DNA from: an uncultured Myxococcales bacterium
GTDB taxonomy: Bacteria; Myxococcota_A; UBA9160; SZUA-336
DNA length: 46,931 bases
Direction of reading: 5' to 3'
Assembly (NCBI GenBank): GCA_964566375.1
Contig: CAZMKX010000001.1
Location: 1 to 46,931, forward strand
In this document: positions 3,551 to 40,911 of the stretch, piece by piece
Layout: the number at the start of each line of letters is the position of its first letter
Position numbering within the stretch: position 1 is the stretch's first letter
Program-made: the position numbers and the translations under genes
Notes under the pieces: generated by a model
What the model was told of the DNA's origin: nothing
Databases searched by the model: none
The model's input: the letters and a program-made list of their open reading frames with translations, nothing else

Positions 3551-4000
3551 TCAGGCCGACTCGGGCTGAACGATCAGCACGTCCGGCGTCGTGTTGGTGG
3601 TTGCGAACTCGAACTCGAAGGCGATCAGCGCCGCGAAGTAGTCGCGGTCGCCTGCCCCCGTGCGCGCGTACGTGGCGCCCGCATACCGCCGCTGAAGACC
3701 GATCCCGGTCGCAGCGATCAGCGCCTGCTTGATCTCGATCCCGACCTGGTCGCGCTCAGCCGGCGTCTTCCCGATCGCCGTGAAGCGAACGCGCAGCGCG
3801 TGGAGCTCGAGCCAGGTCCCCTCCTGCGACTCCGCAAGGCGCTGGATCTGGTCCTCGATCGGCTCGACCGCGATCGCCGGCACGCGCGCCCGAGCGAACG
3901 CGTGCGTCGGATCTTCGAAGACGTCAGCGCCCGTCGACGGAAGCCCCGTCACCGCGCCGATCAGCTCGTCGAGGATCTGCCGGACGGCGTCGACGCTCAC
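3551..4000 (-). CDS. Neck/tail-terminator-like protein (DUF3168-like)
   Basis: 149 aa. GTG start overlaps the upstream stop (GTGA). Position and overall pattern fit tail completion proteins; the family call is tentative. Confidence 0.55.
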   Translation of the reverse strand: MSVDAVRQILDELIGAVTGLPSTGADVFEDPTHAFARARVPAIAVEPIEDQIQRLAESQEGTWLELHALRVRFTAIGKTPAERDQVGIEIKQALIAATGIGLQRRYAGATYARTGAGDRDYFAALIAFEFEFATTNTTPDVLIVQPESA

Positions 4001-4302
4001 GAGGCCACGCGCAGGCGCAGCCGCGCCGTGCCGTGGCCGTCCGGGTGGACTTCGACGACGGTGTACTCGCGATTGCGGACGACCACCGTCTTACCCTGCT
4101 CGGCGCGGCCCATCGGAAGATCCGCGAGCACCACCGCACCCACCGGGCCGACACTCTCAACCGAGACGCCGTCAAGCCCGGCTTGAACGAACGCCTCGTC
4201 GAAGATCATCCGGACGCTCGCGCCGTCGTAGAGCGCCGACTCCTCGCAGAAGACGCCCTGCGTCGCTTCCTGCGCGAGGCCCGCGAGCTCGGACCAGTTC
4301 AC
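3997..4302 (-). CDS. Head-tail adaptor/head-closure-like protein
   Basis: 101 aa with a GTG start. C-terminal ...REYTVVEVHPDGHGTARLRL... resembles small head-tail joining proteins. Synteny supports the call. Confidence 0.55.
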   Translation of the reverse strand: MNWSELAGLAQEATQGVFCEESALYDGASVRMIFDEAFVQAGLDGVSVESVGPVGAVVLADLPMGRAEQGKTVVVRNREYTVVEVHPDGHGTARLRLRVAS

Positions 4303-4311
4303 CGTGGCGCG

Positions 4312-4683
4312 CTAGCTGTTCGTCGCGTTCCGAATGCCCTGGACGAGCAGCATGTTCACGGTCGTCTCGCCCGCACCGTTCGTTGTCGAGGAGACCGCTA
4401 TGCCGACTTCCTTCGTCGTGTTCGTCTTGTTCACGACCTTGCCGGAGTCGTCCCAGTAGAGCGCGTCGCCGATGCCGACGGCGAGCGAGCCGGTCTTCGT
4501 GATCTGCACGACGCCGCGCACGCGGAGCTGGCAGTCGACCGCCGCCGAGGTCGACGCGATGTCGTTCTCGGCCACGCCGAACAGGTTGCCGACGAGCACG
4601 CCGCCGCCGGCCGCCACGGAGGCCGAGGTCGAGAACGAAACCGGAATGACGTTCGCAACGTCCTGACGCACGTACTTGGACAT
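4312..4683 (-). CDS. DUF2190-family head decoration-like protein
   Basis: 123 aa. ...AGGGVLVGNLFGVAENDIASTSAAVDCQLRVRGVVQITKTGSLAVGIGDALYWDDSGKVV... matches the DUF2190 pattern recalled from many phage head modules. Confidence 0.75.
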   Translation of the reverse strand: MSKYVRQDVANVIPVSFSTSASVAAGGGVLVGNLFGVAENDIASTSAAVDCQLRVRGVVQITKTGSLAVGIGDALYWDDSGKVVNKTNTTKEVGIAVSSTTNGAGETTVNMLLVQGIRNATNS

Positions 4684-4744
4684 GGTTCCCCCCGAGCGGC
4701 CGCGACTAGCGGCCGGTTAGATGAATCGAGCCTGACTGGTCAGG

Positions 4745-5299
4745 TCACTTGAGCGCGATGAACGTCGCGCAGATGTCCTGGCACGCCTCGCGATAGAACA
4801 CCGAGGCGAACTGCTGGAACTCCTGGTTCCGCAGAACGATGTCCGGATGCAGCCGGTGCCCCCACTGAACCTCGAAGTCGCACGTGTAACAGAAGCACTC
4901 GGCCTGAGTCGCGCACACGCAATTCGCGATGTCCGAATGCGGTGCCTGCGTCTTGCGCCATGCGCGACCGAGGTACAGGAACCAGTGTTCCGACACCGGC
5001 GGCCACTGGTGCGTCAAGTCGCCGTAGGATCGACCGCTCGCCCAATGCGGAACGATGATCTCGGCCGTCGCGCCAGGCTTCAGCACCCGGTAGAGCTCGT
5101 TCGCGAAGTGGATCCGCTCGGGCGCCGTGAGGTGCTCGACGAACTGGTTGCAGTAGACCTCGTCGACCGACGAGTCGTCCCACTTCCACGGATTCCGCAG
5201 GTCGTGAACGACGATGTCCGTGCGCCCGTAGTCGCGCACGTCGACACCGACGAATCCTTCCTTCGGAGTCGGACCGCAGCCGAGATCGAGCTTCACCAC
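4745..5299 (-). CDS. Class I SAM-dependent methyltransferase
   Basis: VVKLDLGCGPTPKEGFVGVDV...VDEVYCNQFVEHL...LYRVLKPGATAEIIVP carries motif I, post-I and the LKPGG-like motif. GTG start overlaps the upstream TGA (GTGGTGA). The N-terminal two thirds of track ORF 4745..5965 is out-of-frame junk. Confidence 0.8.
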   Translation of the reverse strand: MVKLDLGCGPTPKEGFVGVDVRDYGRTDIVVHDLRNPWKWDDSSVDEVYCNQFVEHLTAPERIHFANELYRVLKPGATAEIIVPHWASGRSYGDLTHQWPPVSEHWFLYLGRAWRKTQAPHSDIANCVCATQAECFCYTCDFEVQWGHRLHPDIVLRNQEFQQFASVFYREACQDICATFIALK

Positions 5300-6006
5300 A
5301 CCACCCCATTGCCGTCGATGTGGCCGACCTTCACGTTGCAGTCCACCGCGCAGCGATACCCGAGCTGCCGCGCGTGGTGCCAGAAGTAGAGGTCCTGCGA
5401 CACGAGCGGGAACTTCTCGGTTTTGAACATCGGCGTCGGCATCCGCTGATCCCGGAACATCGAAAGGCGCCAGAGCGCGAACCCCATGCCCGTCGCGCAG
5501 CACTCGACGAGCTCGCCGTTCACCGGCGGCTGCGGCCGCATGTTCGGGATCGGATCCTTCGGATCCCCCCAGATCTGCGGATACCCGCCCGCGCCCTTCT
5601 GGAAATAGAGCCCCGAGATGCAGTGCAGCTCGGGGTGCGCCTCCATCCGCTCGACGAGCTGAAGCACGCCCGTCGGTCGCGGTAGGTTGTCGTGCTCGAT
5701 CGTGAGCATGTATTCCCAGTCGGACAGCGACGGCTCGGCGATGATCCCGCGCACGGCGTTCTCGTATGCCTCGCCGACTTCCATCCCGAGCGCGAGCACG
5801 CGCACGACTGCGTTGTTCGGCGGGAACCCGAGGTTCCAGATCGCGAGAGCCACCTTCGCCGGAATCGATTCGCCGCTCGGGATCACCACGACGATGCGCT
5901 GGCGCTTCCACGTAGCGCCCTCGATCACCCGGCAGCGGCCCTGCTCGAACTGGCCGTTGTGCCACCCGGAAAAATCCTGCACGATCAGTTGCGGGGGGGT
6001 CGACAC
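5293..6006 (-). CDS. Glycosyltransferase (GT-A/family 2-like), soluble
   Basis: RIVVVIPSGESIP... N-terminal strand, a DxD-position motif (YMLTIEHDNLP), and later CATGMGFALWRLSMF. No TM segment. Start is uncertain: GTG 6006 was chosen as the first start after the upstream stop at 6030. Confidence 0.6.
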   Translation of the reverse strand: MSTPPQLIVQDFSGWHNGQFEQGRCRVIEGATWKRQRIVVVIPSGESIPAKVALAIWNLGFPPNNAVVRVLALGMEVGEAYENAVRGIIAEPSLSDWEYMLTIEHDNLPRPTGVLQLVERMEAHPELHCISGLYFQKGAGGYPQIWGDPKDPIPNMRPQPPVNGELVECCATGMGFALWRLSMFRDQRMPTPMFKTEKFPLVSQDLYFWHHARQLGYRCAVDCNVKVGHIDGNGVVW

Positions 6007-6029
6007 TACTCCGTCCGCCTCCGATGAAA

Positions 6030-6644
6030 TCAGCGTGGCTGCGGTAGATTCGCAGGCCTCTTCAAGTGCTTCCAAGACCGACCGCTCTTGATGAACCGGA
6101 TCGCTTGATACCCGACACCGAAACGTCGCGAAACAGAAACGCAACCCTCGCCAGCAGCAAGACGTCGGATGACGCTTCGCGCCTGCGACTCGCTGAGCGT
6201 CGCCATCTTCGAACGCTCTCCGCAGATCAGACGACCATGCTTTCGCCGATCAGCAGCGTTCTGTTTCAAGGTTCCGTAAGCGAGATTCTTCGGACGATTG
6301 TCGAGGCGCTTCCCGTTCAGGTGCCGCAGGACAGCGCCGGACGGCCTCTTGCCGAGAAAGGCAAGCGCAACCAGCGTGTGTACATGAACACGCGATTGCG
6401 CTCTACCTTCCTTGCAGCGCGGATCAGAATCCGGCTTACGGATAGTGCAGTGCATGTAACCGTCCTGGCCGAGATAACAGCGCATCTGGCGCGGCGGACG
6501 TTCCGAGTATGGGATGCGCGACCCCACACTCGGAACGTCAGCACCACGCGATTTCGCGATGTATCTGTTCCAGAACCTTGACGAGTAGAGCAGCCCCCGC
6601 TCGTCCGCCCAGTAACCAGGGAACCCAGGGATTTCTTTTTTCAT
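6030..6644 (-). CDS. Free-standing HNH homing endonuclease (NUMOD4 + HNH_3 + C-terminal HTH)
   Basis: [17 protein letters not shown] (NUMOD4-like), [12 protein letters not shown]...[22 protein letters not shown] (HNH_3-like), [13 protein letters not shown]...[18 protein letters not shown] (HTH). Visibly lower GC than its flanks. Confidence 0.85.
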
Positions 6645-6664
6645 GCCCTGGATTATAGCGGGTG

Positions 6665-8713
6665 TTACGCTCCTGCGTTACAGTAGCCACCCCGCCAGTC
6701 GATGCCGCCCACGTAGAAGTCGAACGCGACCCGGAGCTCGACGCCCTCGACCTCGAAGCCCGAGCGGCTCATCACGCGCGGTCCGGCCGAGCCGGACAGC
6801 GAGCCGTAGGCGAAGTTCGGGAAGAGCGCCGGGTCGGCGAACAGCCACCAGCGGTTGCCCGAGAGGTTCGCGTCGAGGATCGGCTCGATCTTCCCGGCCC
6901 ACGGGTTCTGGCTCGTCGGCGCCGACGGCACGTAGGCCGCCGACGTGTACTGGAACGCCAGTTCCCGCTTGCCCGGAGCGGCGAGCAGGTAGCGCGGCAT
7001 GATGTTCAGCTTGATCCCGTCGCCCAGGTTGTCCGCGCCGATGCCGGTCTGCGACTGCATGAGCGTCGCGCCCACGGTGATGCTCGTCGCCGAGATCGCC
7101 GTGCCGCTCGAGGTGTAGTTCGCGTGACCGCCGGCCGTGGTGAGCGCCGTCGCGTTGAACATCGCGCCGGTGTCGCCGAGCGTCGGGCCGACCGTGCCCA
7201 GCAGGGTGAAGAACGCGGCGTTCTCGAAGTCGGCGATCCGCACGCCGTAGGCCCCGAGGACGCGGCCGAAGGCGTTCAGGTCGTCGTTCACGAGCATCTG
7301 GCGCGAGAACGCGAGGCGCCGGCCGTAGGTGCCGAGCGCGACCGTGTTCTTCTGCTCGGCGAAGTGCCCGAGCTTGATCTCGCCGTTCTCCCCGACCGCA
7401 AGCGGCTGCGGGAAGTCGCCGACGTTCAGGACCGACGCCGACTTGAAGTCGGGCAGGTCCTGCCGGATGCAGAGCTGCCGGTAGGTCGGAACCGCCGCCG
7501 CATAGGCCGGGAGCAGCACCTTGTTGCTGGCGTTCGCCAGCAGGTTCGGGTAGTCGCTCGTCGAGAGCGCGAGCTCGACCACGCGCGAGCGGTCGCGCTG
7601 ATCCACGCCGCGAGCGATGCGCAGGCTGCGGATCGTCTCGTAGGCGAGATCGATGAACCCGAACTGCGCGAACGCGCGCGCCTCGGCGGGCACTTCCTTC
7701 CGCACCGCGCGCGCCGCGAGGGCGACCGCCATGCGCTCGGACTTCGACTCCCAGGAGTCGTGGTCGTCGCCGACCGTGATGCTGCCGCGCGTCGGCGGCT
7801 CGCGCCGCTTGCGCTCCTCGGCGGCGAGCTGCATCAGCGCCTTGATCGGCGTGCCGAGGTTGATGTGCTTCTGGACCCACAGGTCGTCGAGCCCGTAATG
7901 CTCGCCGACCCGCTTCGCCTGCGCCGCGAGCTGCTGGTCGCGCTCGATCTCCTCGTCCACCAGGCGGGCGACCGTGCTCGGCGAATCCGCCGACTTCGGC
8001 TTCGCCTGCGTCTCGGTGTCCTTCGAGTGCAGCTTCACGTCGAAGGCACTCTCCTCGATCTCGACGATCTCGCCGAGCTTGCCGACGTCCTCGATGTCCG
8101 CGAGCAGCCGAACCTTCATGGCTTTCCCCCTGTGCGCGTCGGCATCGGCCGCTGCGCTGAAGTTGATCTGGCACGGAAACTTCTCTGCCGAGTCCGACAG
8201 AGCCTGGGCACCGGGATCGGCACCGACTGCGACGAGGGAGACTTCCATCGGCTCCCAGTCGATCGCGAGGAACTTCTTCGTGCGATCACCCTTCTCGGTG
8301 ATCTCTTTCATCTGGTGGACGACAGCGCCCATCGAGACGTTGCGGATGATCTTCGACTTCACGTCCTCGAAGATCGGGCCGACATCCTCGCGCTCGCTGA
8401 AGCGGACGACGCAGTGCCCCTTGCCAGAGTCGATCCATGCGTTCTCGACGACACCGATCACGTTCGAGAGGTCGTACTGCGCGTGCGAGTTGAGCAGCGG
8501 TGCACCGCTCTTCATCCGGTTCAGCCGAACCGCCTTCGGGTCCATGCTGAAGGCGAGCTCGTAGATCTCGCCGTCCCAGTAGTTGAAGCGAGTGACGAAC
8601 GCGCCCGTATACCAGAGCAGCTCGACGGTCCGCTTCTCGGCGTCAAGGCTCTGAACGTCGACGTTTCCGCTCGCGCGCAGCTTCGGGAGGCTCAGGTCAC
8701 GCTGCTTCGGCAT
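6665..8713 (-). CDS. Prohead protease - major capsid protein fusion
   Basis: ATG 8713 with a GGAGGA SD. The N-terminal roughly 170 aa resemble an HK97-type prohead protease (...APLLNSHA...VIGVVENAW...IIRNVSMG...). A charged linker/scaffold-like segment follows, then a C-terminal roughly 330-aa capsid-like domain ending ...[30 protein letters not shown]. Confidence 0.8.
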
Positions 8714-10208
8714 CGTCGTCCTCCGTCGGCTTCTTGGCGGGCTTCGCTGGCTCCACCTTCTGCTGCGTTCGCGCATCGCTCGTGAGCGTCAGGCCACGCT
8801 CATCGACCTCGCGCTTGAACTCTTCGATCTCGTCGAGCTTCTCGCGCCAGTCGTAGCCCTCGCGGCGAAGCGCGTTCGGGTAGCTGTCGATCCCAGCCTG
8901 GATCGCCTCGACCATCGCCGGGATCTCTTTCGCTGGATCGAGCAGACCGAAACGAGGCGGTGTATAGACCGCTGGCGTCCGCGGATTCACGGAACCGTCG
9001 AGCACGCCGAGCGCACCGACGAACGCTTCCCAGATCGGCCGGCAGAGCTGCGGCACCGTGAGCTGCCACTGGTCGGCCTCGACCATCCCGCGGAACTGCA
9101 CCAGGCCGCCGCGGTGACTCGTGTACGTCACCTGCGACAGATCTCCGGTCAGCAGCTCGTAAGGAACACCGAGACCCGCCGCAACCGCGTGAAGCTGCAC
9201 GCTGTTGAACGGCGAGTAATCGCTCGAGGGTCGCGGATCTGCGACCGTCACCGACTCGCCCGGCTTCAGGTATCCGACCATGCCCGGGCGCCACGACTCC
9301 TCGCGCGAGCCGTCCGTGCCCTGCGCCGTCGGGCCGATCGTCGCGCCGGGAAGTCCCTGCGGCGTCGTCACCCACGCGGCGAGACACGCCGCGATCTTCT
9401 TGCGCATCACCTCGGCGTCGTCGTAGTCGTCGAGCGCGCGAAGCCGGAGCATCACCGGCGCGAAGTCGGTCACACCGCGGCGCTGCCCAGCGCGCAGCGG
9501 CTTGAAGTAGTGGATCACCTCAGACGCAGGCACCCGCCGGCTCGCGTAGCCGCGCCGGATGCTCGCGACGATCGAGCTGTCGCCCGGGTGCGAGTCGAAC
9601 AGCCAGTAGGCGACCGGGCGCTCGCCCTGGTACTCGATCCCCTGCCGGATCTCGTGGTCCTCGCTGATCGCTTCGTTCCGGCTGCTGTCGATGAAGTCCG
9701 GCTCGAGCAGCTGCAGCCGAAGCGGCACGTCCCCATCGAACGCGGGGGCCGTCGCATAGAGCCTGACGAGCGACTCGCCGGCCTCGCTGCGCGTGCGCTC
9801 CGCGAGGCTCTGCATCCCGTAGAGATCGTGACACCGAGACACGTCGCAGACGTCGGCCCAGCGCTTCCACGAGTCGTCGATCCGTCGATTGATCCGCCGG
9901 TTCGGGCCCGCCGCCTGACACAGGATCCCCGTGCCGATCTTGTTCGAGACGATCACCGCGAGGCCCTTCGCGGCGTGCGGGTTGTTCCGCACCAGGTCTC
10001 GGGCGCGATCGCGCAGCAGTTCCTGATCGGCCGAGATCTCGGCGTCTGCCGACGTCGCGCCCGTCGACCAGCCATCCGTGCGGCGACCGCGGCGCGCGCC
10101 CTCGTAGGCGAGCATCGCCTGCATCACCGCGCGCGCCTGCGCGCGCTGCGCGCCTCGCACGGGAGAGAGCCAGCCGATCGTGCGATCGAGCCAGTTCAGG
10201 TCAGCCAC
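8697..10208 (-). CDS. Portal protein, lambda (gpB) family
   Basis: 503 aa with a GTG start. LNWLDRTIGWLSPVRGAQRAQARAV...YEGARRGRRTDGW...LRDRARDLVRNNPHAAKGLAVIVSNKIGTGI matches the lambda-family portal N-terminal pattern. Confidence 0.9.
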   Translation of the reverse strand: MADLNWLDRTIGWLSPVRGAQRAQARAVMQAMLAYEGARRGRRTDGWSTGATSADAEISADQELLRDRARDLVRNNPHAAKGLAVIVSNKIGTGILCQAAGPNRRINRRIDDSWKRWADVCDVSRCHDLYGMQSLAERTRSEAGESLVRLYATAPAFDGDVPLRLQLLEPDFIDSSRNEAISEDHEIRQGIEYQGERPVAYWLFDSHPGDSSIVASIRRGYASRRVPASEVIHYFKPLRAGQRRGVTDFAPVMLRLRALDDYDDAEVMRKKIAACLAAWVTTPQGLPGATIGPTAQGTDGSREESWRPGMVGYLKPGESVTVADPRPSSDYSPFNSVQLHAVAAGLGVPYELLTGDLSQVTYTSHRGGLVQFRGMVEADQWQLTVPQLCRPIWEAFVGALGVLDGSVNPRTPAVYTPPRFGLLDPAKEIPAMVEAIQAGIDSYPNALRREGYDWREKLDEIEEFKREVDERGLTLTSDARTQQKVEPAKPAKKPTEDDDAEAA

Positions 10209-10782
10209 GCGAGAAGGCGGCTTCCGTGAAGCGTCCAGCGAACCAGGTCTGCGTCGACTCGTTCACGGCTGCCTCCGTCTGCGCCCCGAGCGTCACGCTG
10301 AGCACCGGCCCGGCAGCCCCCTCGCTCGCGCCGTACTGGCGGCTTGCCGCGACGAGCGCATCGAGCTCGAGCACGAACGCCAGGCGCCCGCCCCACCCGG
10401 AGAGCGCGGCAACCGCGTTCACCGCGCTCGCGTTGATCGTGAGCACGACCGGAACGATCTCGGTCTCGACGACGGCCGCCGATGCGACGAGCGTCTTCCC
10501 GGCCGTCGTCGGAAGGTTCCCGTCGCCGAAGAGCGCGGCGCTCGCCGCCGGCACGATGTAGAGGCGCAGCGTCCCGCTACCGACCGCAGCGAGCTCGCCA
10601 GAGAGCGCCAGCGAGAGCGCCGTGAACTCGAAGCCGGTCGCAACGTCGAACACGAGGCCGGCGGGCCCCGCGGCGCCGAGCACCCGGAACGACACACCGC
10701 CCTCGATCCAGAGCCCGCTACCGAGCCACGGCGCCTCGGCCGAGTCGTGATACCCGTCCTGCGTCGCGCCGTAGTCGGGCAC
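10201..10782 (-). CDS. Hypothetical protein (193 aa) inserted between gpW-like and portal genes
   Basis: ATG 10782 lies 7 nt after the gpW-like stop, and the 3-prime end overlaps the portal start. High GC3. Ala/Gly/Val-rich. No family recognised. Confidence 0.6.
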   Translation of the reverse strand: MPDYGATQDGYHDSAEAPWLGSGLWIEGGVSFRVLGAAGPAGLVFDVATGFEFTALSLALSGELAAVGSGTLRLYIVPAASAALFGDGNLPTTAGKTLVASAAVVETEIVPVVLTINASAVNAVAALSGWGGRLAFVLELDALVAASRQYGASEGAAGPVLSVTLGAQTEAAVNESTQTWFAGRFTEAAFSRG

Positions 10783-18875: not shown

Positions 18876-19639
18876 CCGCGTGCCCCCCGTGCTCCTCGTG
18901 CGACGAACTCAGCGAGCACGCCGCCACCGGCTTTCGCTGGCGTCGCGGCTTGCATCTCGCCGGCCTTGCGGATCCAGTTCCGCACCGCGGCGAGCCACGA
19001 CTTGACGTGCTTGCCCTTGCTGCGATGCCAGTCGCCGCATCGCTCGGCCTGGTCGAGCAGCCACGCGGGGTCGCGCGCGCGGTCGGTGATCTTGCCGGCG
19101 GCGGCGGCCTCTTCGGCCCACGCGCGAAGGTCGGACCACTCGCGATCGGTCAGGGGTCCGTGGGTCTTGGCGGGACTCTCGGGCCTGGCGACTTGCTCGC
19201 TGGCCGGCGCAGCCGGCGGCGAAGGCGAAGGCGAAGGCGAAGGCGAAGGCGAAGGCTGACTAGTTTTGTGCTCGTCGCGTGCTAGCACGCAGCTAGCATC
19301 ATCGTAACAATCGAGAAACACTCGCTTTTGTTTGGCGAGAACGCGGCTCACTGTCTGATCTGCATGATCGGGCCAGTCATGGACACGGAGCCGGTGACAC
19401 GCGCAGCGGTCAAGCCATCCAGACGAGATGAGCGCTGAAATCAGGCGCTCCGCATCGCCTGCCCAGCCCACTGCTCTGGCGATCGCGGCATCCGAGAATC
19501 GTCCGATGTCTCCAGCGTGCGAGTAGCTCGCGGCGAAGTGGATGACGCTTTCTACGATCCCGACGGCGCCCCAGCGATCGAGATTCAGCTCGGCCGCGAG
19601 CGCATGCATCTTCGGGTGGTCGGGCGTCCCGCGCTTCAT
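18863..19639 (-). CDS. Putative replication organiser/initiator with (Ser-Pro)6 linker
   Basis: ATG 19639 in an ATGA overlap with the HNH stop. MKRGTPDHPKMHALAAELNLDRWGAVGIVESVIHFAASY...GWLD, then SQPSPSPSPSPSPSPP, then a C-terminal basic domain ...WHRSKGKHVKSWLAAVRNWIRKAGE. Confidence 0.55.
   Translation of the reverse strand: MKRGTPDHPKMHALAAELNLDRWGAVGIVESVIHFAASYSHAGDIGRFSDAAIARAVGWAGDAERLISALISSGWLDRCACHRLRVHDWPDHADQTVSRVLAKQKRVFLDCYDDASCVLARDEHKTSQPSPSPSPSPSPSPPAAPASEQVARPESPAKTHGPLTDREWSDLRAWAEEAAAAGKITDRARDPAWLLDQAERCGDWHRSKGKHVKSWLAAVRNWIRKAGEMQAATPAKAGGGVLAEFVARGARGARGWSG
19221..19256. repeat. Perfect hexanucleotide tandem repeat (GAAGGC)6
   Basis: gaaggc x6 on the plus strand, encoding (SP)6 on the coding strand of 18863..19639. 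Confidence 0.95.
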
Positions 19640-20229
19640 GCCTTTTCCACCCGCTCCGGCTGCCCGCGTAATCCGAGCTCGGTGGCACGCGTCCAACAGA
19701 CACCGCAGAAATACTTCCATCGCTGGCTCGGGTAGCTGCACTTGGCGAAGGCGATCTCACTGGCGATCACCACTTCCTCGAGTCCGAGCAGCTCGATGAA
19801 TTTCTCCGTCTGCCTTCGGCAGCGACCACCCCACTCGTCGTTCGGATTCCACGTTGAGTCGCCCCCCCAGAACCGCCGGCCCACGTCGTCGATTGCAGCG
19901 TCGATCTCTGCGCGAAGGCGCTGGACGTTGGCGCGATATGCCGCGAGCTGTTCGGCCCTCTGCGCGGCGTCTTCCGACATCGACGCGTAGTCGCGCGGCA
20001 CCGCGCGGGGCTCGATGACACGATCTCGTTTACCCGCGTTGCACGCAAGGCACGACGTCCACAGGTTCTCTTCGTTGTTCTGGCCGCCCTTCGACACTGG
20101 AAGGACGTGGTCGATCTGAAGGATGACTGCCGGCGGCGTGCGCCCGCAGTACTGACACCGGAACCCGTCGCGCTCGAAGATTCGGAAACGCTTCGCGTTC
20201 CCGATCCCCTTGCGAGTCGCCACCCTCAC
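19636..20229 (-). CDS. HNH endonuclease (classical HNHc) with C-terminal extension
   Basis: RIFERDGFRCQYCGRTPPAVILQIDHVLPVSKGGQNNEENLWTSCLACNAGK is a canonical HNH motif. 197 aa with a GTG start. Confidence 0.85.
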   Translation of the reverse strand: MRVATRKGIGNAKRFRIFERDGFRCQYCGRTPPAVILQIDHVLPVSKGGQNNEENLWTSCLACNAGKRDRVIEPRAVPRDYASMSEDAAQRAEQLAAYRANVQRLRAEIDAAIDDVGRRFWGGDSTWNPNDEWGGRCRRQTEKFIELLGLEEVVIASEIAFAKCSYPSQRWKYFCGVCWTRATELGLRGQPERVEKA

Positions 20230-27248: not shown

Positions 27249-27983
27249 GTGCTCACCTGGGAAAGCATCCGCAACACCTTGCATAATCTCGCGCTCGAGC
27301 GTGGCGAGATCGCCGGCTACCCGATGCCGATCGAGGGGCATGAGCTCCGCGTAGCGAAGGGCGTCAACTTCTCGCACCTCGAAGGCGCGCGCCTGGACTC
27401 GCCCGAGTCTGAGTGGGTGTGCTCGAAAGACGATCTCGCCTGGGTCGAGCGCACGAGCTGGTGGTGCGCGAAGCGGCGTGCGCGGATCATCATCTGCCAG
27501 CGCCAGCGCGCCGACGGAAGTCTCGAGCTCGACTGGTGCGCTGATCCTCCGTTCGGCGTCGAGCTCGAGCCGCTCCGCCGTTTCTACTTCCTGCAGCAGA
27601 CGCTCGACGCTGGCATCAAGGCGTGGGACTTCGACGCCGAAGCCCGAGCCGTCGAGACGCTGAAGACGCTCATCTCGAAGCCGCAGATGGATCGCTATTC
27701 CACGCTCGGAATGTTCGTGGAGTCGTCGAAGCGCAGCGGCGCCGTCTATCTCTTCCGGCGCTGCCGCCCGACGCTGGTGCTGCTGCGCACGAGCGGCGGG
27801 AACTTCCGACCCTCAGTCGCGCTCTGCCTGCATCCGCTCGCGTACTACGGCCACACGTTCGCGGGCGGGATGGTGCCCAGCGACGACGTGATCGCCCACC
27901 TGATGCTGATGCGTGGTGACGAGCACGGCTTCTGGAAGCGCGCGAATCAGCACCCGATCGATCGCCTGGAGGCTGGCCTGTGA
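27249..27983 (+). CDS. Hypothetical protein (244 aa)
   Basis: GTG start with coherent coding pattern. Conserved-looking C-terminus ...LCLHPLAYYGHTFAGGMVPSDDVIAHLMLMRGDEHGFWKRANQH. No family named. Confidence 0.6.
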   Translation: MLTWESIRNTLHNLALERGEIAGYPMPIEGHELRVAKGVNFSHLEGARLDSPESEWVCSKDDLAWVERTSWWCAKRRARIIICQRQRADGSLELDWCADPPFGVELEPLRRFYFLQQTLDAGIKAWDFDAEARAVETLKTLISKPQMDRYSTLGMFVESSKRSGAVYLFRRCRPTLVLLRTSGGNFRPSVALCLHPLAYYGHTFAGGMVPSDDVIAHLMLMRGDEHGFWKRANQHPIDRLEAGL

Positions 27984-29374
27984 GCAGCACCAGCTCGATC
28001 GAGTGGACAGATGCGACCTGGAACCCGGTTCGCGGCTGCGCCCGCGTATCACCTGGCTGTGGCGGCGCCGACGGCGGCGGCTGTTACGCCGAGCGAATGG
28101 CGCACCGCTTCTCCGGACCGGGCGGGCCCTATGAAGGCCTCACGCGTATGACGGCGCACGGCCCGCGCTGGACCGGCAAGGTTCGGCTCGTGCCCGAGCT
28201 GCTCGACTGGCCGCTGAGCAAGCGGAAGCCGCTCAAGATCTTCGTCAATTCGATGGCCGACTTGTTCCACGACGACGTGCCGGACGAGTTCATCGCGCGC
28301 GTCTGGCAGATCATGGGTGCTGCGTCCTGGCATACCTACCAGATTCTGACGAAGCGACCGGAGAGAATGCGCTCCTGGGTCGTCCGCTGGTACGCCGGAG
28401 AGATCACAGAGCCCCACTCCGTGCTCCCGGTGCCCGGCTATCCAGGCTACTCCGTGACCACGCACGGCCAGGTTCTGGGGAAGCGCGCAGATACGAGCAG
28501 TGGGCTCTCGTTCGACGTCGGCGAGCAGGGGCACCGGCGCGTCACGATGCACCGCGACAGCTCACCCAAGAGCGGCGAGCGCGAGCTCGTGCACCGCCTC
28601 GTGCTGGAGGCGTTCGCCCGACCTGCGCGCGCTGGCGAGCAGGCGTGCCATCGCAACGGAGACCCAGGCGACAATCGCCTCTCGAATCTCTACTGGGGAA
28701 CGCAGGAGAGCAACTGGCGAGACCGGATCAGCCACGGGCGCGGGCGCGCGTATGCGAAGCTGACTGCTGCCGACGTCGCGAAGATTCGCTCCCGATGCGC
28801 CTCCGGAGAACCGGCGGCATCCGTCGCTAGTGACTTTGCAGTCTCGGATACCCAGATCAGGAACATCGCGAGTGGTAGGCAGTGGTCGACGCCTGCCGGG
28901 GAGCGGCCGTCCGGCCCGCCGACGCGCGTGATTCTCGATTCGGTTTGGCTCGGCGTCTCCGTCGAGGATCAGGAGCGCGCCGACGAGCGGATCCCGCTGC
29001 TGTTGCAGACGCCGGCCGCGGTGCGGTTCATCTCGGCCGAGCCGCTGCTCGGCGGGCTCGACCTGACGCCGTGGGTTCATGCGTTCAACGCTGACCACGA
29101 CGGGCGCGGCTGCTGCGAGACTCCGCGAGGGCTGCTGCATTGGGTGATCGTCGGCGGCGAGAGCGGGCCCGGCGCGCGCGAGTGCCGCGTCGATTGGATC
29201 CGCAGCATCCTCGCGCAGTGCCACGCGGCCGGCGTCCCCGCGTTCTGCAAGCAGCTTGGATCGAAGCCAACCATGAGCGCGAGCGACTGGACGCACAACC
29301 GCGAGCGCGGCGGGAAGGGGGACGATCCCGAGCAGTGGCCGCCCGATCTGCGCGTGCAGGAGTTCCCGTCGTGA
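27980..29374 (+). CDS. DUF5131 (phage Gp37/Gp68 family) protein interrupted in frame by a NUMOD4-HNH-HTH module
   Basis: N-terminal part IEWTDATWNPVRGC...CYAERMA...IFVNSMADLFHDDVPDEFI...WHTYQILTKRPERM, and C-terminal part VWLGVSVEDQERADERIPLL...VRFISAEPLLGGLDL...WVIVGGESGPGAR...AGVPAFCKQLG, look like the two halves of a DUF5131 protein. Residues about 141..316 look like an HNH endonuclease (VPGYPGYSVTTHG...LVHRLVLEAF...CHRNGDPGDNRLSNLYWGT..N...HTH). Confidence 0.8.
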   Translation: MSSTSSIEWTDATWNPVRGCARVSPGCGGADGGGCYAERMAHRFSGPGGPYEGLTRMTAHGPRWTGKVRLVPELLDWPLSKRKPLKIFVNSMADLFHDDVPDEFIARVWQIMGAASWHTYQILTKRPERMRSWVVRWYAGEITEPHSVLPVPGYPGYSVTTHGQVLGKRADTSSGLSFDVGEQGHRRVTMHRDSSPKSGERELVHRLVLEAFARPARAGEQACHRNGDPGDNRLSNLYWGTQESNWRDRISHGRGRAYAKLTAADVAKIRSRCASGEPAASVASDFAVSDTQIRNIASGRQWSTPAGERPSGPPTRVILDSVWLGVSVEDQERADERIPLLLQTPAAVRFISAEPLLGGLDLTPWVHAFNADHDGRGCCETPRGLLHWVIVGGESGPGARECRVDWIRSILAQCHAAGVPAFCKQLGSKPTMSASDWTHNRERGGKGDDPEQWPPDLRVQEFPS

Positions 29375-29874: not shown

Positions 29875-30284
29875 AGGCCGCATCCGATACGCAGCAGACC
29901 GACCTCTTCGCCCGCGCGCGCACCGCCGACCCCGCGTCGTCTCACGCCGCCGCCGAGCGCGTCGAAGCGTCGGGCGAAGCGAAGATCCAGCGCGAGGTCG
30001 CCGCGGCGCTCGTCGCGCGACACCCCGGCGCCACCACGCGCGAGCTCTCGGCCTGCCATCCGCCCGGAGAGAACCGCGAGTCGTTCTACCACACGCTCGC
30101 GCGCCGCCTGCCCGAGCTCGAGAGAGCGAAGCGCGTCTACGCCGTGTCGACCGGAAGGGACTCGCTCCGCTGGCGGCCGGGGCGCAAGCCGGGGTCGATC
30201 TGCCCGCACCACCGCTGCGGAGAGCGGAGGCCGTGCGGGGTGCATGCGGTCGAGGCGAGTCGAGAGGAGAGGTTTCAGGGGTGA
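29871..30284 (+). CDS. Winged-helix-like hypothetical protein (137 aa)
   Basis: ATGA-coupled start. ...IQREVAAALVARHPGATTRELSA...SFYHTLARRLPELERAKRVY... Confidence 0.5.
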   Translation: MKAASDTQQTDLFARARTADPASSHAAAERVEASGEAKIQREVAAALVARHPGATTRELSACHPPGENRESFYHTLARRLPELERAKRVYAVSTGRDSLRWRPGRKPGSICPHHRCGERRPCGVHAVEASREERFQG

Positions 30285-30946
30285 TCCTGCCCGGCCACAA
30301 GCATCCCGCGCCCCACGGCACGCATGCTCGCTACGTACACGGCTGCCGCTGTACCGATTGCCGCGCCGGACATGCCGCGACCGTGCGCGCTCGGATTGCT
30401 CGTGGGCGAGCCGCCGCGCGAGAGCTTGGCCCGGCGATTCCCGGCACGCTCTGCCCCGGCGTGAACGGTGCTCCCTGCAAGCGCGGCCGGAAGCTGCGCG
30501 CCGGCAGCCTCGCCGTCTGCTTCGATTGCCGCGGCTCGCTGGTGTGGAACGGCCTCGTCGATGCGGCTCCCGCGCGCCGTCACATGCGGAAGCTCTCGCG
30601 GCGAGGCGTCGGGTTCCGGGCCGTGGCGGCGGTGACGGATATCGGCCTGACGACGATCCAGAAGATCCGCAACGGCAAGCGCCGGCGCATCCGAAAGGCG
30701 GTCGCGGATCGCATCCTCGCGGTGACGGCCGCGGAGGTTTCCGACGGCGCGCTCGTCCCGGCAGGCGAGACCAACCGCATGCTGCGCGAGCTGGTGACGG
30801 AGTACTTCACGCGCGGCGAGGTCGCGCGGCAGCTCGGGTACAAGTCGCTCGCGCTCCAGATCGGGAAGAACGGGCTCGTGCTCGCGCGGACGGAGCAGCG
30901 GGTGCGGAGGCTGTACCGGCGGGCGATGGGGGAGGAGGCGGCGTGA
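30281..30946 (+). CDS. DNA-binding protein upstream of integrase (possible recombination directionality factor)
   Basis: GTGA-coupled start. HGTHARYVHGCRCTDCRAGHA motif, then HTH-like segments (...VTDIGLTTIQKIRNGKRR..., ...RGEVARQLGYKSLALQIGKNG...). Overlaps the int start. Confidence 0.5.
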   Translation: MILPGHKHPAPHGTHARYVHGCRCTDCRAGHAATVRARIARGRAAARELGPAIPGTLCPGVNGAPCKRGRKLRAGSLAVCFDCRGSLVWNGLVDAAPARRHMRKLSRRGVGFRAVAAVTDIGLTTIQKIRNGKRRRIRKAVADRILAVTAAEVSDGALVPAGETNRMLRELVTEYFTRGEVARQLGYKSLALQIGKNGLVLARTEQRVRRLYRRAMGEEAA

Positions 30947-32181
30947 CGGCTGCGGCCCTCCACTCTTCCCGGGCCGCCCCTGTCCGTGGTATCGACTGGT
31001 CCGTGAGCGAGGACTTCGGGCACGTCCGCCAGCGCCGCGACGGCCGCTGGTACGTCGACTGCGGCAGGTTCGGCCGCGTCTACAGCAGCAAGGGCGCGAA
31101 ATTCGAGCGGCGCCGCGACGCCGAGCACGTCCTCAACGCCATCCGCTCGGTAATCGCGGAGGGCAAGCCCAAGGCTCAGGCCGTCGACGCCTGGATGCCG
31201 ACCACATCGGCCGCGCACCGGGTGGACGTGTGGCTGGCGCGCTGGCTGAAGCGCATGAGCGAGCTCCAGGCGGCCGGCGAGCGCAGCAAGGAGTACGTCG
31301 ACGAGCTGCGCCGCTGGTGCGCGAAGGGAGGGAAGCACGCGCACCTCGCCGGCTACTGGGGCCGGCGCAGCGTGCTCGAGATCGACTACGCGGGACTCGA
31401 GGAGTGGTGCGCGTGGCTCGAGCAGCGCGGGCTCTCGGCGAAGACGCGGCACAACGTCGTCTCCGCGATGAGCGCCTTCCTCGGCTGGCTGCGAAAGCTT
31501 GAGGAGATACCCCGCGTGCCGGTGATCCCGTGGCCGAAGGTCGCCGAGCACGCGCCGCGGATCCTCGCGCCAGCGGCGCAGGCTCGAGTGCTCGAGCAGA
31601 TCCCCGTCGGCGCCCGCGGAATCTTCATGGCGCTCGCGCTGCTCGGCCTGCGCCCGAGCGAGGCGCAGCGGCTCCGCGCGCAGGACTACTCGCCCGGCGA
31701 GCCCGGCTGGCTGACCGTGACCCGCACGAAGAACGGCCAGGTGAAGCGGCTGCCGGTGCCGAGCGATCTGGCCGACTGGATCGCCGAGCACGTCGAGCTC
31801 GACCCGCTGAAGGGGGCAGCGCCGCTGTTCTCGATCCCGTACTTCGGCAGAGGCATCCGATCGACCCGCGGCTGGAATCCGACGAGCCTGCGGATGACGT
31901 GGGCGAAGGCGTGCCGCGCGGCAGGCGTGCGCGCATCGCTCTACGAAGGGACGAAGCACAGCCGCGCGACCGACCTGCTGCGCCAGGGCGTTCCCGAGCG
32001 CGTGCTGCAAGCGATCCTGGGCCACAAGGATCCGCGATCGACCCGCCGGTACGCGCGGCTCGCCGATCAGGCCGTGGTGGAGGCTTTGTGGCTCCGACGT
32101 GACTCCGGCTCTGGCGTGGCTCCGGAGGCTCCGAAGGCAGCGTCGCAAGTGCGCGTAATCAAACGAGGTACGGAAAAGTGA
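30943..32181 (+). CDS. int: Tyrosine integrase
   Basis: GTGA-coupled start, 412 aa. SAM-like N-domain (...SAKTRHNVVSAMSAFLGWL...). Catalytic-domain motifs: ALLGLRPSEAQRL (Arg), KHSRATDLL (His-x-x-Arg), ILGHKDPRSTRRYARL (His...Tyr). Confidence 0.9.
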   Translation: MTAAALHSSRAAPVRGIDWSVSEDFGHVRQRRDGRWYVDCGRFGRVYSSKGAKFERRRDAEHVLNAIRSVIAEGKPKAQAVDAWMPTTSAAHRVDVWLARWLKRMSELQAAGERSKEYVDELRRWCAKGGKHAHLAGYWGRRSVLEIDYAGLEEWCAWLEQRGLSAKTRHNVVSAMSAFLGWLRKLEEIPRVPVIPWPKVAEHAPRILAPAAQARVLEQIPVGARGIFMALALLGLRPSEAQRLRAQDYSPGEPGWLTVTRTKNGQVKRLPVPSDLADWIAEHVELDPLKGAAPLFSIPYFGRGIRSTRGWNPTSLRMTWAKACRAAGVRASLYEGTKHSRATDLLRQGVPERVLQAILGHKDPRSTRRYARLADQAVVEALWLRRDSGSGVAPEAPKAASQVRVIKRGTEK

Positions 32182-39169: not shown

Positions 39170-39631
39170 CTACCTCACCCACTCGTCACCGACGAGCCGT
39201 GAACCGAGCGCGTTCTGGAATCTCATGAGATCGCCGATCGACACGGTCCCGTCTTCGTTGAAGTCTGGGTAGCCACACCAGACGCGCCACGGACCCGGCT
39301 CGCGCTCACGCACCGTCGCGTCGGGCAGCCGGTCGTGGTATCGCATCGGGTCCGCGTCGATCTTCATCTCGTGGACCGCAAAGCGCGCCTTCACACAACG
39401 CGGCAGCGACACGACCGCACCCGTGTACCCGCGCGTCATCGCGACGACCTCCCACGCGGCGCTCTCGGCTGCGTCCTGCCGATAGATCGCGTAGGCGTTC
39501 ACGTCGGGATTCGGCGGCGCCGGAGCTTCCCACGAGAGCCAGAAGGTGCGCTGCGCCATGAGGCGAGGTTCCTGCGCGCTCGCGATGGATGCAGCCAACA
39601 CCACCGCTGCCACGAGACACGAGCGCATCAT
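39170..39631 (-). CDS. Secreted protein with FN3-like and dockerin/EF-hand-like loop
   Basis: Signal peptide MMRSCLVAAVVLAASIASA / QEP. LSWEAPAPPNPDVNAYAIYRQ (FN3-like). DFNEDGTVSIGDLMRFQNALG (dockerin-type Ca loop). Confidence 0.6.
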   Translation of the reverse strand: MMRSCLVAAVVLAASIASAQEPRLMAQRTFWLSWEAPAPPNPDVNAYAIYRQDAAESAAWEVVAMTRGYTGAVVSLPRCVKARFAVHEMKIDADPMRYHDRLPDATVREREPGPWRVWCGYPDFNEDGTVSIGDLMRFQNALGSRLVGDEWVR

Positions 39632-40911
39632 TCGACCGTGCAGACGGCCTCGAAGTAGACGCCGGAGTCAACTTCATCGCCACACGCGATCAGGTCCACC
39701 GTGTTATCGGCGGGGGTAGACGTACCGTACTTCTTCGCGCTGCCGGCCACGCAGGCGGAGGCGAAGGCGGGAGAGTCCGCGCCGTCGTACGAGGATTCCG
39801 AGTACTGAAGGTTGCAAAGCTCTTCGGCTGTGGTCAGGCTTCCGCTATTCGCGACCGCTCCGATGACTGGACCGCGCGCCGTGGTCGAGGCCGTCGATGC
39901 GGTCACGCTGCGCGGAATCGCGCGGAGCGGCAGAACGATGTTGCTCGTCAGATTGTAGGCTCCTGTACCCGTGACGCTGATGTACTGCACCGACCCGCCC
40001 GAGGCGTCCGACTTCTCTCGAAACCGCAGGATCGAACCAGCGCCGGACGTCGATGGCAGGTAGGAGGTCGAGCCGATGATGGCTCCGCTGTCCGTGAACG
40101 TCGCGCCGTCTGCCGTCACCGGAAGCGCGCCCGTTCCGCTCCACGAGCCCGAGCTCGTCATGTTCGCGGTGAGGCTAGCCTCTGGCGTCCAGGTGTTCGA
40201 CGCGGTGCAGCGGCAGATTGCTCCGTTGAACGCCGTGGTGCAGTCGGTGTCGCTCGACGTGTCCTGCTCGAAAAAGATGTCCCCGACGGAGCACGTAGAC
40301 GGCGGGTCCGCGCCAGCGAACAGGAACACACCGCCGCCGCCATTCGACCCGGCCGCTGCGTTGCTCGTCGAGAGGTACGCCGCCGGGATGTTGACGTAGC
40401 CGTTGGTGTAGTCGTACTTGAAAATCGTGTCCGTGCCTGCCCCGCCGGTCCCCGTCTCGCGCATGAAGACGACGCCCTGCGCGTGCCCCGTCCCGCCAGC
40501 CCCCGCGAGCCGCAGCACGATGTCGTCATTACCATCGCCTTGCAGCAGATGCAGCTGGTTCGTGTCGCCGGTGCCGTTCTTGATCCAGAGCTTCCCGTAG
40601 CCCGTCGCCGTCGATGGCGCGCTCGAGGTCTCGGGGATGGCGAGCACCGATGCCGTCGACAGCACGCCGCTGACCACGTCTGGCGTGATCGTGCAGACGG
40701 TCTTTCCGCCGGCGTCAGCGCAGTTGATCGACGTGCCGACGAAGTTCAGGCTGGTGCGCGGTGTGAGCGGAGTCCCCTCGTTCTCGACGGTGTGCCCGCC
40801 GCTTCCGAGCGAGATCGGAACGCCACCGCCCTGGGCGAGCGCAAGAGACGGCACCAGCAGACCCGCCACGACGAGGACCGCGAGAAGTAGTCGAGTGCGC
40901 ATCGGCTTCAC
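39628..40911 (-). CDS. Fibre-like Cys/Gly/Thr/Ser-rich protein with N-terminal signal-peptide-like segment
   Basis: MKPMRTRLLLAVLVVAGLLVPSLALA / QGGG, then ...VENEGTPLTPRTSLNFVGTSINC..., a motif recalled from phage fibre proteins. 427 aa. Start is GTG 40911 or ATG 40902. Confidence 0.6.
   Translation of the reverse strand: MKPMRTRLLLAVLVVAGLLVPSLALAQGGGVPISLGSGGHTVENEGTPLTPRTSLNFVGTSINCADAGGKTVCTITPDVVSGVLSTASVLAIPETSSAPSTATGYGKLWIKNGTGDTNQLHLLQGDGNDDIVLRLAGAGGTGHAQGVVFMRETGTGGAGTDTIFKYDYTNGYVNIPAAYLSTSNAAAGSNGGGGVFLFAGADPPSTCSVGDIFFEQDTSSDTDCTTAFNGAICRCTASNTWTPEASLTANMTSSGSWSGTGALPVTADGATFTDSGAIIGSTSYLPSTSGAGSILRFREKSDASGGSVQYISVTGTGAYNLTSNIVLPLRAIPRSVTASTASTTARGPVIGAVANSGSLTTAEELCNLQYSESSYDGADSPAFASACVAGSAKKYGTSTPADNTVDLIACGDEVDSGVYFEAVCTVE

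Follow-up and report, generated by a model that had tools for sequence, protein, structure and literature searches.

Covalent glycosylation of tailed-phage virions is described in the literature we found for mycobacteriophages only, where it weakens antibody recognition. The findings on glycosyltransferases (GTs) and methyltransferases (MTs) in virion glycosylation of cluster O mycobacteriophages reportedly go back to Freeman et al. (2023). Here, we relate such systems to a coupled pair of a GT and an MT gene within the head module of a lambda-like temperate siphophage, which is found on contig CAZMKX010000001.1 of an uncultured Myxococcales bacterium (46,931 bp, 68.6% GC; hereafter the window). 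Together with an HNH endonuclease gene, both genes (4745-6644) were originally predicted to form a lower-GC island that arrived or spreads by homing and modifies virion proteins. We find that the segment is not one island but consists of a selfish HNH gene and an unrelated GT-MT cassette. In a tentative reading, whose chances we put slightly below even, the GT would add a sugar to a capsid-surface protein in the cytoplasm and the MT would then methylate that sugar.

As summarized in PMC11600133 and PMC12619734, cluster O mycobacteriophages (Corndog and others) carry an O-methyltransferase gene beside three tandem GT genes, by which capsid and tail tube are modified. Like the window, these phages and Che8 encode soluble GT(s) and an MT, which in their case yield glycans on virion surface proteins. 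They differ in infecting actinobacteria, in using several GTs and in carrying the glycans on the C-terminal parts of capsid and tail-tube subunits. The window cassette, on the other hand, is a fixed pair of one GT-A enzyme without Pfam match and one small MT, occurs in uncultured lambda- and podovirus-like phages and is partnered with a repeat or cement protein. We draw this likeness at the level of description; no cultured phage matched the GT.

Among structurally characterized viral enzymes, A197 of the Sulfolobus turreted icosahedral virus (STIV; PDB 2c0n) is, like the window's GT, a small, soluble, virus-encoded GT-A protein (Foldseek E-value 6e-10, TM 0.60/0.73). It differs in that the two share 14% sequence identity, in lacking an MT partner and in belonging to an archaeal virus of a different lineage. 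Its substrate is presumably a glycosylated capsid protein. A064R of chlorovirus PBCV-1 combines two GT domains with a methyltransferase domain, and these assemble the rhamnose portion of the capsid glycan and methylate it. A064R follows the same logic, i.e., a cytoplasmic virus-encoded GT-A and an S-adenosylmethionine (SAM)-dependent MT act in succession on a capsid glycan, while PBCV-1 is a eukaryotic giant virus whose domains are fused in one protein; we liken the two by description only. Further high-ranking structural neighbours of the GT are the collagen hydroxylysine GTs LH3 (GT domain) and COLGALT1 as well as mimivirus R699 (E-values 2.5e-8 to 8e-8). These GT-A enzymes glycosylate repetitive structural proteins. 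Unlike the collagen GTs, the cassette has no lysyl hydroxylase partner, and its two candidate acceptors are not collagen-like, i.e., the decoration protein of the window and a Ser/Thr/Asn/Gly/Ala-rich repeat protein encoded upstream of the GT in other phages, which we label X600.

Bacterial and prophage systems provide two more points of reference. Dedicated adhesin GTs are encoded beside their substrates (HMW1C/HMW1, Aah/AIDA-I, GtfA-B/serine-rich repeat proteins). As in the gene order X600-GT-MT, a large, repetitive, Ser/Thr/Asn-rich surface protein adjoins a dedicated cytoplasmic GT. Different from that order, the adhesin systems are bacterial, use GT-B, GT41 or heptosyltransferase folds and have no MT; moreover, X600 is missing from the window. 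The gtrABC genes for O-antigen conversion are GT genes on temperate phages, as in the window, but Gtr proteins reside in the membrane and are expressed from the prophage, close to att or tail genes, whereas the window's enzymes are soluble and part of the late head operon.

The features discussed in the following are:

5293-6006, minus strand: soluble GT-A-fold glycosyltransferase of 237 aa, assigned by its AlphaFold2 (AF2) model and Foldseek, with E104-H105-D106-N107 at the DxD position (E104, D106 and N107 invariant, H105 near-invariant in the family)
5293-5296, minus strand: GTGA overlap for translational coupling, with the MT start GTG at 5296-5294 and the GT stop TGA at 5295-5293
4745-5296, minus strand: class I SAM-dependent methyltransferase of 183 aa (Methyltransf_11 with 30.0 bits at a cut-off of 21.2; phrog_6636, E-value 2e-14)
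4312-4683, minus strand: DUF2190/Phage_cement_2 decoration (cement) protein gene (Phage_cement_2, E-value 9e-18), of a subfamily that co-varies with GT-MT
6030-6644, minus strand: free-standing HNH_3 homing-type endonuclease of 204 aa with a weak C-terminal match of helix-turn-helix type (HNH_3, E-value 4.6e-11; phrog_59, E-value 2e-26)
6665-8776, minus strand: protease-scaffold-major capsid protein fusion (phrog_4523 'major head and protease protein', E-value 8e-155; Phage_capsid_4, E-value 6e-40)

The three genes reported between the capsid fusion and the DUF2190 gene are all real, and their order on the minus strand is portal (8697-10208), capsid fusion, HNH, GT, MT and decoration gene. The start/stop coupling of GT and MT can be read directly from the GTGA overlap; an alternative GTG start of the MT is located at 5299. 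With regard to composition, segment 4745-6644 shows a GC content of 0.627 compared to the window mean of 0.686 and is the lowest among the 1.9-kb stretches (0.1% quantile). The GC content at third codon positions (GC3) is 0.64 for the HNH gene (GC 0.587) but 0.90 for the GT and 0.86 for the MT, with 0.87-0.93 for the flanking head genes. That is, the low GC of the segment is due to the HNH gene, and since GT and MT resemble the flanking head genes, the compositional island is the HNH gene alone. The lower-GC island thus holds for the average of the segment, while foreign composition is limited to one of its three genes.

The assignment of the GT is based on its predicted fold. Neither a Pfam or NCBIfam match nor a Gtr-like profile match was found, and sequence-profile matches are confined to phrog_12406 (E-value 6e-4, weak) and, using the family profile, SpsA (E-value 0.08). 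The AF2 model (predicted local distance difference test, pLDDT, 81.8; predicted template modelling score 0.81) shows a single Rossmann-like alpha/beta/alpha GT-A fold. Foldseek yields 164 PDB matches at E<=1e-3, of which the top 50 listed are nearly all GT-A enzymes, including A197, LH3, SpsA, Mnn9, hyaluronan synthase and TarP. A197 ranks best, followed by the LH3 GT domain, R699, SpsA and COLGALT1. Matches within BFVD are phage GT-A proteins, with another PBCV-1 protein (Q98454) among the weak ones. The EHDN motif is aligned with TDDN of SpsA and is a putative variant of the metal/nucleotide-binding DxD motif. Thus, the predicted GT-A type is supported by the modelled fold but not by a Pfam or NCBIfam family. 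We do not take the missing match as a refutation, given that fold and family-profile evidence support GT-A.

Within the GT, residues 1-35 (5902-6006) stand out. The first ~27 are predicted to be disordered (pLDDT <50) and yet contain the nearly invariant Q10, D11, G14, H16, N17 and R26. This segment may serve for docking to the acceptor or the MT.

For the MT, the call as class I SAM methyltransferase is confirmed by the Methyltransf_11 match above cut-off, by motif I (LDLGCG, residues 3-8), which is near-invariant within the family, and by the AF2 model (pLDDT 90.0) with its seven-stranded Rossmann-like class I fold. Of the 301 PDB matches that Foldseek reports at E<=1e-3, the 50 top-ranked ones listed are nearly all class I MTs and include the sugar O-methyltransferase RebM. 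Both enzymes are predicted to be soluble, in agreement with the initial view that they are not membrane-bound O-antigen conversion enzymes: the maximal 19-residue Kyte-Doolittle hydropathy is 1.65 for the GT and 0.89 for the MT, and neither contains a hydrophobic (membrane) segment. Residues ~124-137 of the MT (4880-4925) form a 13-residue Cys-rich insertion (IANCVCATQAECF), which recurs among 36 aligned homologs in P0122 only and is located where the model is less confident.

Homologs of both enzymes are numerous, i.e., we found at least 4054 GT clusters at 90% identity and 1238 MT clusters. The best 120 of the 4054 GT clusters are ~230-245 aa long, about 60-80% identical and all without a Pfam domain. 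Clustering at 50% leaves 465 representatives at E<=1e-3, of which 48 reach E<=1e-30; given these low numbers, the core GT family is unusually tight. No cultured phage among the 50,697 records searched carries the GT; the carriers found are three uncultured podovirus genomes. GT-MT is thus an uncharacterised cassette with no cultured representative and no Pfam model for its GT.

We further inspected the gene neighbourhoods of GT homologs (loci are numbered with prefix L). An MT is located near the GT in 85/86 fetched loci, mostly directly downstream and within 150 nt in 52. Annotated neighbours of the cassette are terminases, portals, scaffolds, head closure proteins and capsid proteins from four or more unrelated families. 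Judged by these annotations, the head-module setting holds across unrelated phage lineages, including podovirus-like contigs. In six loci on podovirus-like contigs, RmlB-like 4,6-dehydratase and RmlD/epimerase-like genes are placed between GT and MT (e.g., L016:8469-9275 and L042:9469-10515; clusters c43 and c57). They point to a nucleotide-sugar donor and possibly to a 6-deoxyhexose as the transferred sugar. The uncultured podovirus MW202524 from Manatee Spring (L087, MW202524.1 1672-20379) has extra genes beside its cassette, which is located between capsid and tail genes: three extra GTs, an X600-like protein and a second MT precede the GT-MT pair. Its GT is annotated as 'has synthase'.

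X600 is encoded just 5' of the GT in 69/77 loci with enough upstream DNA (median gap 33 nt). These proteins span 245-1300 aa, are repetitive and consist to a median of 60% of Ser/Thr/Asn/Gly/Ala compared to 33% in the background, a composition that fits a Ser/Thr-rich acceptor segment. The association also holds in reverse: a search with a single X600 protein (an alignment-based query had no conserved stretch) revealed 19 new loci via X600 alone, and GT and MT are present in 16/16 of those with enough downstream DNA. X600 has no Pfam family on record and no PDB sequence match, and its PHROG matches are fragmentary and without function. No homology of X600 to any window sequence was found by tblastn, and hhalign assigns a probability of at most 0.14% to a relation with the decoration protein.

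Within the window's own lambda-like clade, it is the decoration protein that accompanies the cassette. Eleven GT-MT-positive relatives (L001, L007, L009-L013, L088-L090, L101) show the order portal, GT, MT, capsid, decoration. The order capsid, HNH, GT, MT, decoration was seen for the window only, where decoration, MT and GT genes form one contiguous block (4312-6006). Identities to the window's proteins are:

GT-MT-positive relatives: large terminase (terL) 39-61%, portal 52-59%, capsid 40-48%; GT 71-77%, MT 66-72%, decoration 72-84%
GT-MT-negative relatives (L091, L095-L099): terL 25-47%, portal 35-69%, capsid 33-60%; GT and MT absent, decoration 32-41%

Decoration identities follow the cassette, while those of capsid and portal do not. 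Given this discordance, the compared sequences indicate that the decoration protein has a common history with GT-MT but not with the adjacent capsid gene. The decoration subfamily is small, i.e., 54 of its 55 clusters show 65-93% identity, followed by a drop to 50%. All members with assessable upstream DNA (8/8) are accompanied by the cassette, and L106 shows a parallel divergence of decoration protein (65%) and MT (52%). Residues specific to the subfamily are the N-terminal MSxxVRQxxANV, an SSTSNGAGETT loop and the C-terminal RNATNS.

Based on these observations, we propose the following mechanism. The cassette would be expressed along with the head proteins during the late phase of infection. 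The GT would move a sugar from a nucleotide-sugar donor to Ser/Thr (or Asn) of a capsid-surface accessory protein in the cytoplasm, and subsequent methylation of the sugar by the MT would result in a methylated glycan on the head exterior. In most cassette-bearing phages, the gene just upstream would supply the acceptor, X600; for the window's lambda-like clade, we propose the DUF2190 cement/decoration protein, which is co-inherited with the cassette and encoded directly downstream in the window. We infer that the acceptor is a protein, as well as which protein and which sugar are involved and that the methyl group is placed on the sugar. A broader claim, namely that GT-MT is the core of a widespread, previously undescribed capsid-surface glycoprotein system acting on X600, which was retargeted to a DUF2190 subfamily in the window's clade, seems possible to us but rather doubtful.

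Virion glycosylation and methylation is the best-supported reading because the enzymes are soluble, nothing like a promoter or terminator separates them from the head genes, the cassette resides in head modules and its structural neighbours fit. That is, a scan from the capsid to the decoration gene revealed no promoter-like and no terminator-like site, and the best structural neighbours of the GT include a viral GT-A with presumed capsid substrate and protein-glycosylating GT-A enzymes. The original prediction had suggested such a modification from co-transcription with the capsid genes. It remains the best available reading and is backed by comparative sequence evidence, but as a suggestion rather than a demonstration. 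Several points weigh against it. The fold matches of the MT are generic and cover small-molecule as well as sugar O-methyltransferases, so the methyl group may go to a protein or another acceptor. The best acceptor candidate, X600, is not encoded in the window or in the lambda-like carriers. The decoration protein shows no striking Ser/Thr-rich tail and the S/T-rich loops of its subfamily are modest. Its co-variation with the cassette comprises 8 positive and 6 negative loci and could be explained by mosaic inheritance. In addition, the activity of the cassette is predicted from genes and modelled folds, no cultured phage carries the GT, and lipid-linked cell-surface glycans are also built by soluble GT-A enzymes.

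If true, surface glycans would be common on environmental phage capsids beyond actinobacteriophages, with a bearing on particle stability, adsorption to matrices or mucus and immune recognition. The cassette would furthermore lend itself to the engineering of glycosylated capsids, being a compact system of two enzymes and one substrate. For the window, the decoration protein (4312-4683) is a concrete candidate acceptor, and the functional cassette can be told apart from the selfish HNH gene.

Other substrates of the two enzymes have to be considered as well. They may modify a host envelope glycan, i.e., intermediates of lipopolysaccharide O-antigen, capsule or exopolysaccharide at the cytoplasmic face, during infection or lysogeny and thereby block superinfection or the re-adsorption of progeny, with an incidental position among the head genes. 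This would suit a temperate phage (integrase at 30244-32181), soluble GT-A enzymes and SAM-dependent MTs commonly build or cap O-antigens, TarP (a wall-teichoic-acid GT) and polysaccharide synthases are among the Foldseek matches of the GT, and some cassettes contain Rml-like sugar genes. Nevertheless, we consider a host target quite improbable: the coupled genes are embedded within the late head operon without a promoter of their own, podovirus-like contigs also carry the cassette in head modules, GtrA/GtrB/flippase-type partners are missing, and the tight reciprocal link is to X600 and the decoration subfamily and not to integrase, att or tail-fibre regions. It is also unlikely that the linkage to decoration protein and X600 is merely positional and the enzymes act on another virion protein (capsid, portal, tail tube), or that the MT methylates a protein side chain. 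Such targets would be in accordance with the cassette position between portal and capsid rather than beside the decoration gene in the closest GT-MT-positive relatives, with MT fold matches that are not sugar-specific and with mycobacteriophage glycans sitting on capsid and tail-tube subunits (PMC12619734, PMC11600133). However, it is the decoration protein that co-varies with the cassette while capsid, portal and tail-tube proteins do not, a capsid-specific enzyme conserved to at least 60% is hardly expected to accompany capsids of four or more unrelated families, and the near-constant pairing of GT and MT speaks for the two working one after the other on a single product. The least probable alternative, to which we assign next to no weight, is a modification of phage DNA (glycosylated or methylated bases) during synthesis or packaging. 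DNA glucosylation is the best-known activity of phage GTs, a recent study reports the hypermodification of phage DNA by GTs using diverse glycans (10.1101/2023.12.21.572611) and packaging genes are close to the cassette. In contrast, the scanned window ORFs (open reading frames; some small ones lay outside the scan) contain no hydroxymethylase, TET/JBP-type dioxygenase or DNA C5/N6-methyltransferase, the MT is of the small-molecule type Methyltransf_11, and the cassette is linked to repeat and decoration proteins instead of replication genes.

The remaining alternative concerns the origin of the segment rather than its function, namely that HNH, GT and MT are a single mobile island which entered and spreads through HNH homing. 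The assignment as a free-standing endonuclease of homing type is supported by the HNH_3 match (42.6 bits at a Pfam cut-off of 24.8), the foreign GC3 and the sporadic presence at this site in relatives. In favour of a single island, the HNH gene directly abuts the cassette in the window, the GT-MT(-decoration) block has had another history than the capsid and portal genes around it, and the position of the cassette in the window is unlike that in all relatives. Moreover, Endonuclease_7 or GIY-YIG genes are found exactly between GT and MT in four relatives (L001:4878-5345, L101:4784-5248, L008:1364-2092 and cluster c66 in L074), such that co-conversion of flanking DNA is conceivable. Against a single island stands, besides the GC3 difference, the comparison with relatives lacking GT-MT. 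L091, the closest head relative of the window (portal 69%, capsid 60% identity), shows the order portal, capsid, HNH, hairpin, decoration with neither GT nor MT, i.e., the same HNH type at the same site, which largely refutes the idea. Its HNH protein is 43% identical to the one from the window, starts a few bases from the capsid stop codon and also shows reduced GC3. In L095 (capsid 52%), the decoration gene directly follows the capsid gene, without HNH and without GT-MT. The site after the capsid gene is thus filled in the window and L091 and empty in L095 and L001-type relatives, while this HNH is absent from all other GT-MT loci fetched (>100). Given an HNH without GT-MT, GT-MT loci without HNH and the distinct composition, the HNH gene is independent of the cassette, and we regard a common homing island as very improbable. 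An HNH-homing origin is therefore not supported; the original prediction is largely correct as an observation, but its island is a composite. What the analysis shows are both folds, the GT-MT coupling, the gene neighbourhoods, a decoration protein that co-varies with the cassette and an HNH gene that is independent of it.

Two more HNH genes elsewhere in the window also speak against a single island. At 27980-29374 (plus strand), an in-frame HNH_3 insertion divides the profile match of a DUF5131 (Gp37/Gp68-type) gene into two stretches and looks like a homing nuclease fused into its host gene. The inserted paralog has the same architecture as the HNH at 6030-6644 and is 31% identical to it over 188 aa. 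A third HNH endonuclease gene (PF01844/HNH_5 type, E-value 1e-11) is located in the early region at 19636-20229 (minus strand). With three HNH genes in all, the one at 6030-6644 is one among several selfish nuclease genes, and its site is the capsid/decoration junction. A packaging role in the manner of the HK97-type HNH/terminase pair is unlikely, i.e., the gene is of the HNH_3 homing type and polymorphic among relatives, and the window encodes a gpA-type large terminase with its own nuclease domain. On the other hand, the nuclease genes between GT and MT in some relatives suggest that the conserved cassette attracts homing-type nuclease genes and appears to be a hotspot for them.

The island was further thought to be bounded by a 7-bp GC hairpin (4697-4715). 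The hairpin exists and is part of the following region:

4684-4744, minus strand: MT-decoration intergenic region with two small hairpins (4731-4744, 4697-4715) and the ribosome-binding site of the decoration gene GGGGGGAA

We reject, however, a role as boundary or terminator. The window contains 56 hairpins of this kind compared to 40 +/- 7 in shuffled sequences, the fold energy is ordinary (z -0.69) and a U-tract is missing. In addition, GC hairpins are located 5' of the decoration gene in L001, L007, L010, L011, L101, L091 and L095, i.e., with or without GT-MT, and those of the relatives are stronger than that of the window. The hairpin belongs to the capsid/decoration intergenic region.

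When 4000-9000 was compared with cultured phages by blastn, Bordetella and Pseudomonas phage matches (~71%) turned up within the decoration gene. We judge them to be spurious because the one inspected, from Bordetella phage PBb001 (H1), lies on the strand opposite to the capsid fusion and is not mirrored at the protein level. A search of the genome contigs with the capsid fusion protein gave no match. The true start of the capsid fusion is probably an internal ATG near 8713. In the linker between its protease and capsid parts (residues 220-241, window ~8054-8119), a short match to the N-terminal domain of ribosomal protein L9 is found just under the Pfam cut-off (E-value 5e-4).

Besides the terminase, the window encodes a lambda-family portal, head closure, tail tube and tail chaperone proteins as well as a GH108 lysin, and the tape measure gene spans both contig ends. 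Between the gpW-like and portal genes, a 193-aa Ala/Gly/Ser-rich ORF (10201-10782, minus strand) with native GC3 (0.90) shows no Pfam match and no counterpart among the related head modules compared. A further protein of 427 aa (39628-40911, minus strand), whose gene lies between tail-fibre and lysis genes, is without match in Pfam and PHROG and unrelated to X600. It consists to 52% of Ser/Thr/Gly/Ala, has a signal-peptide-like N-terminus and could be secreted, reside on a surface or serve as a further glycosylation target.

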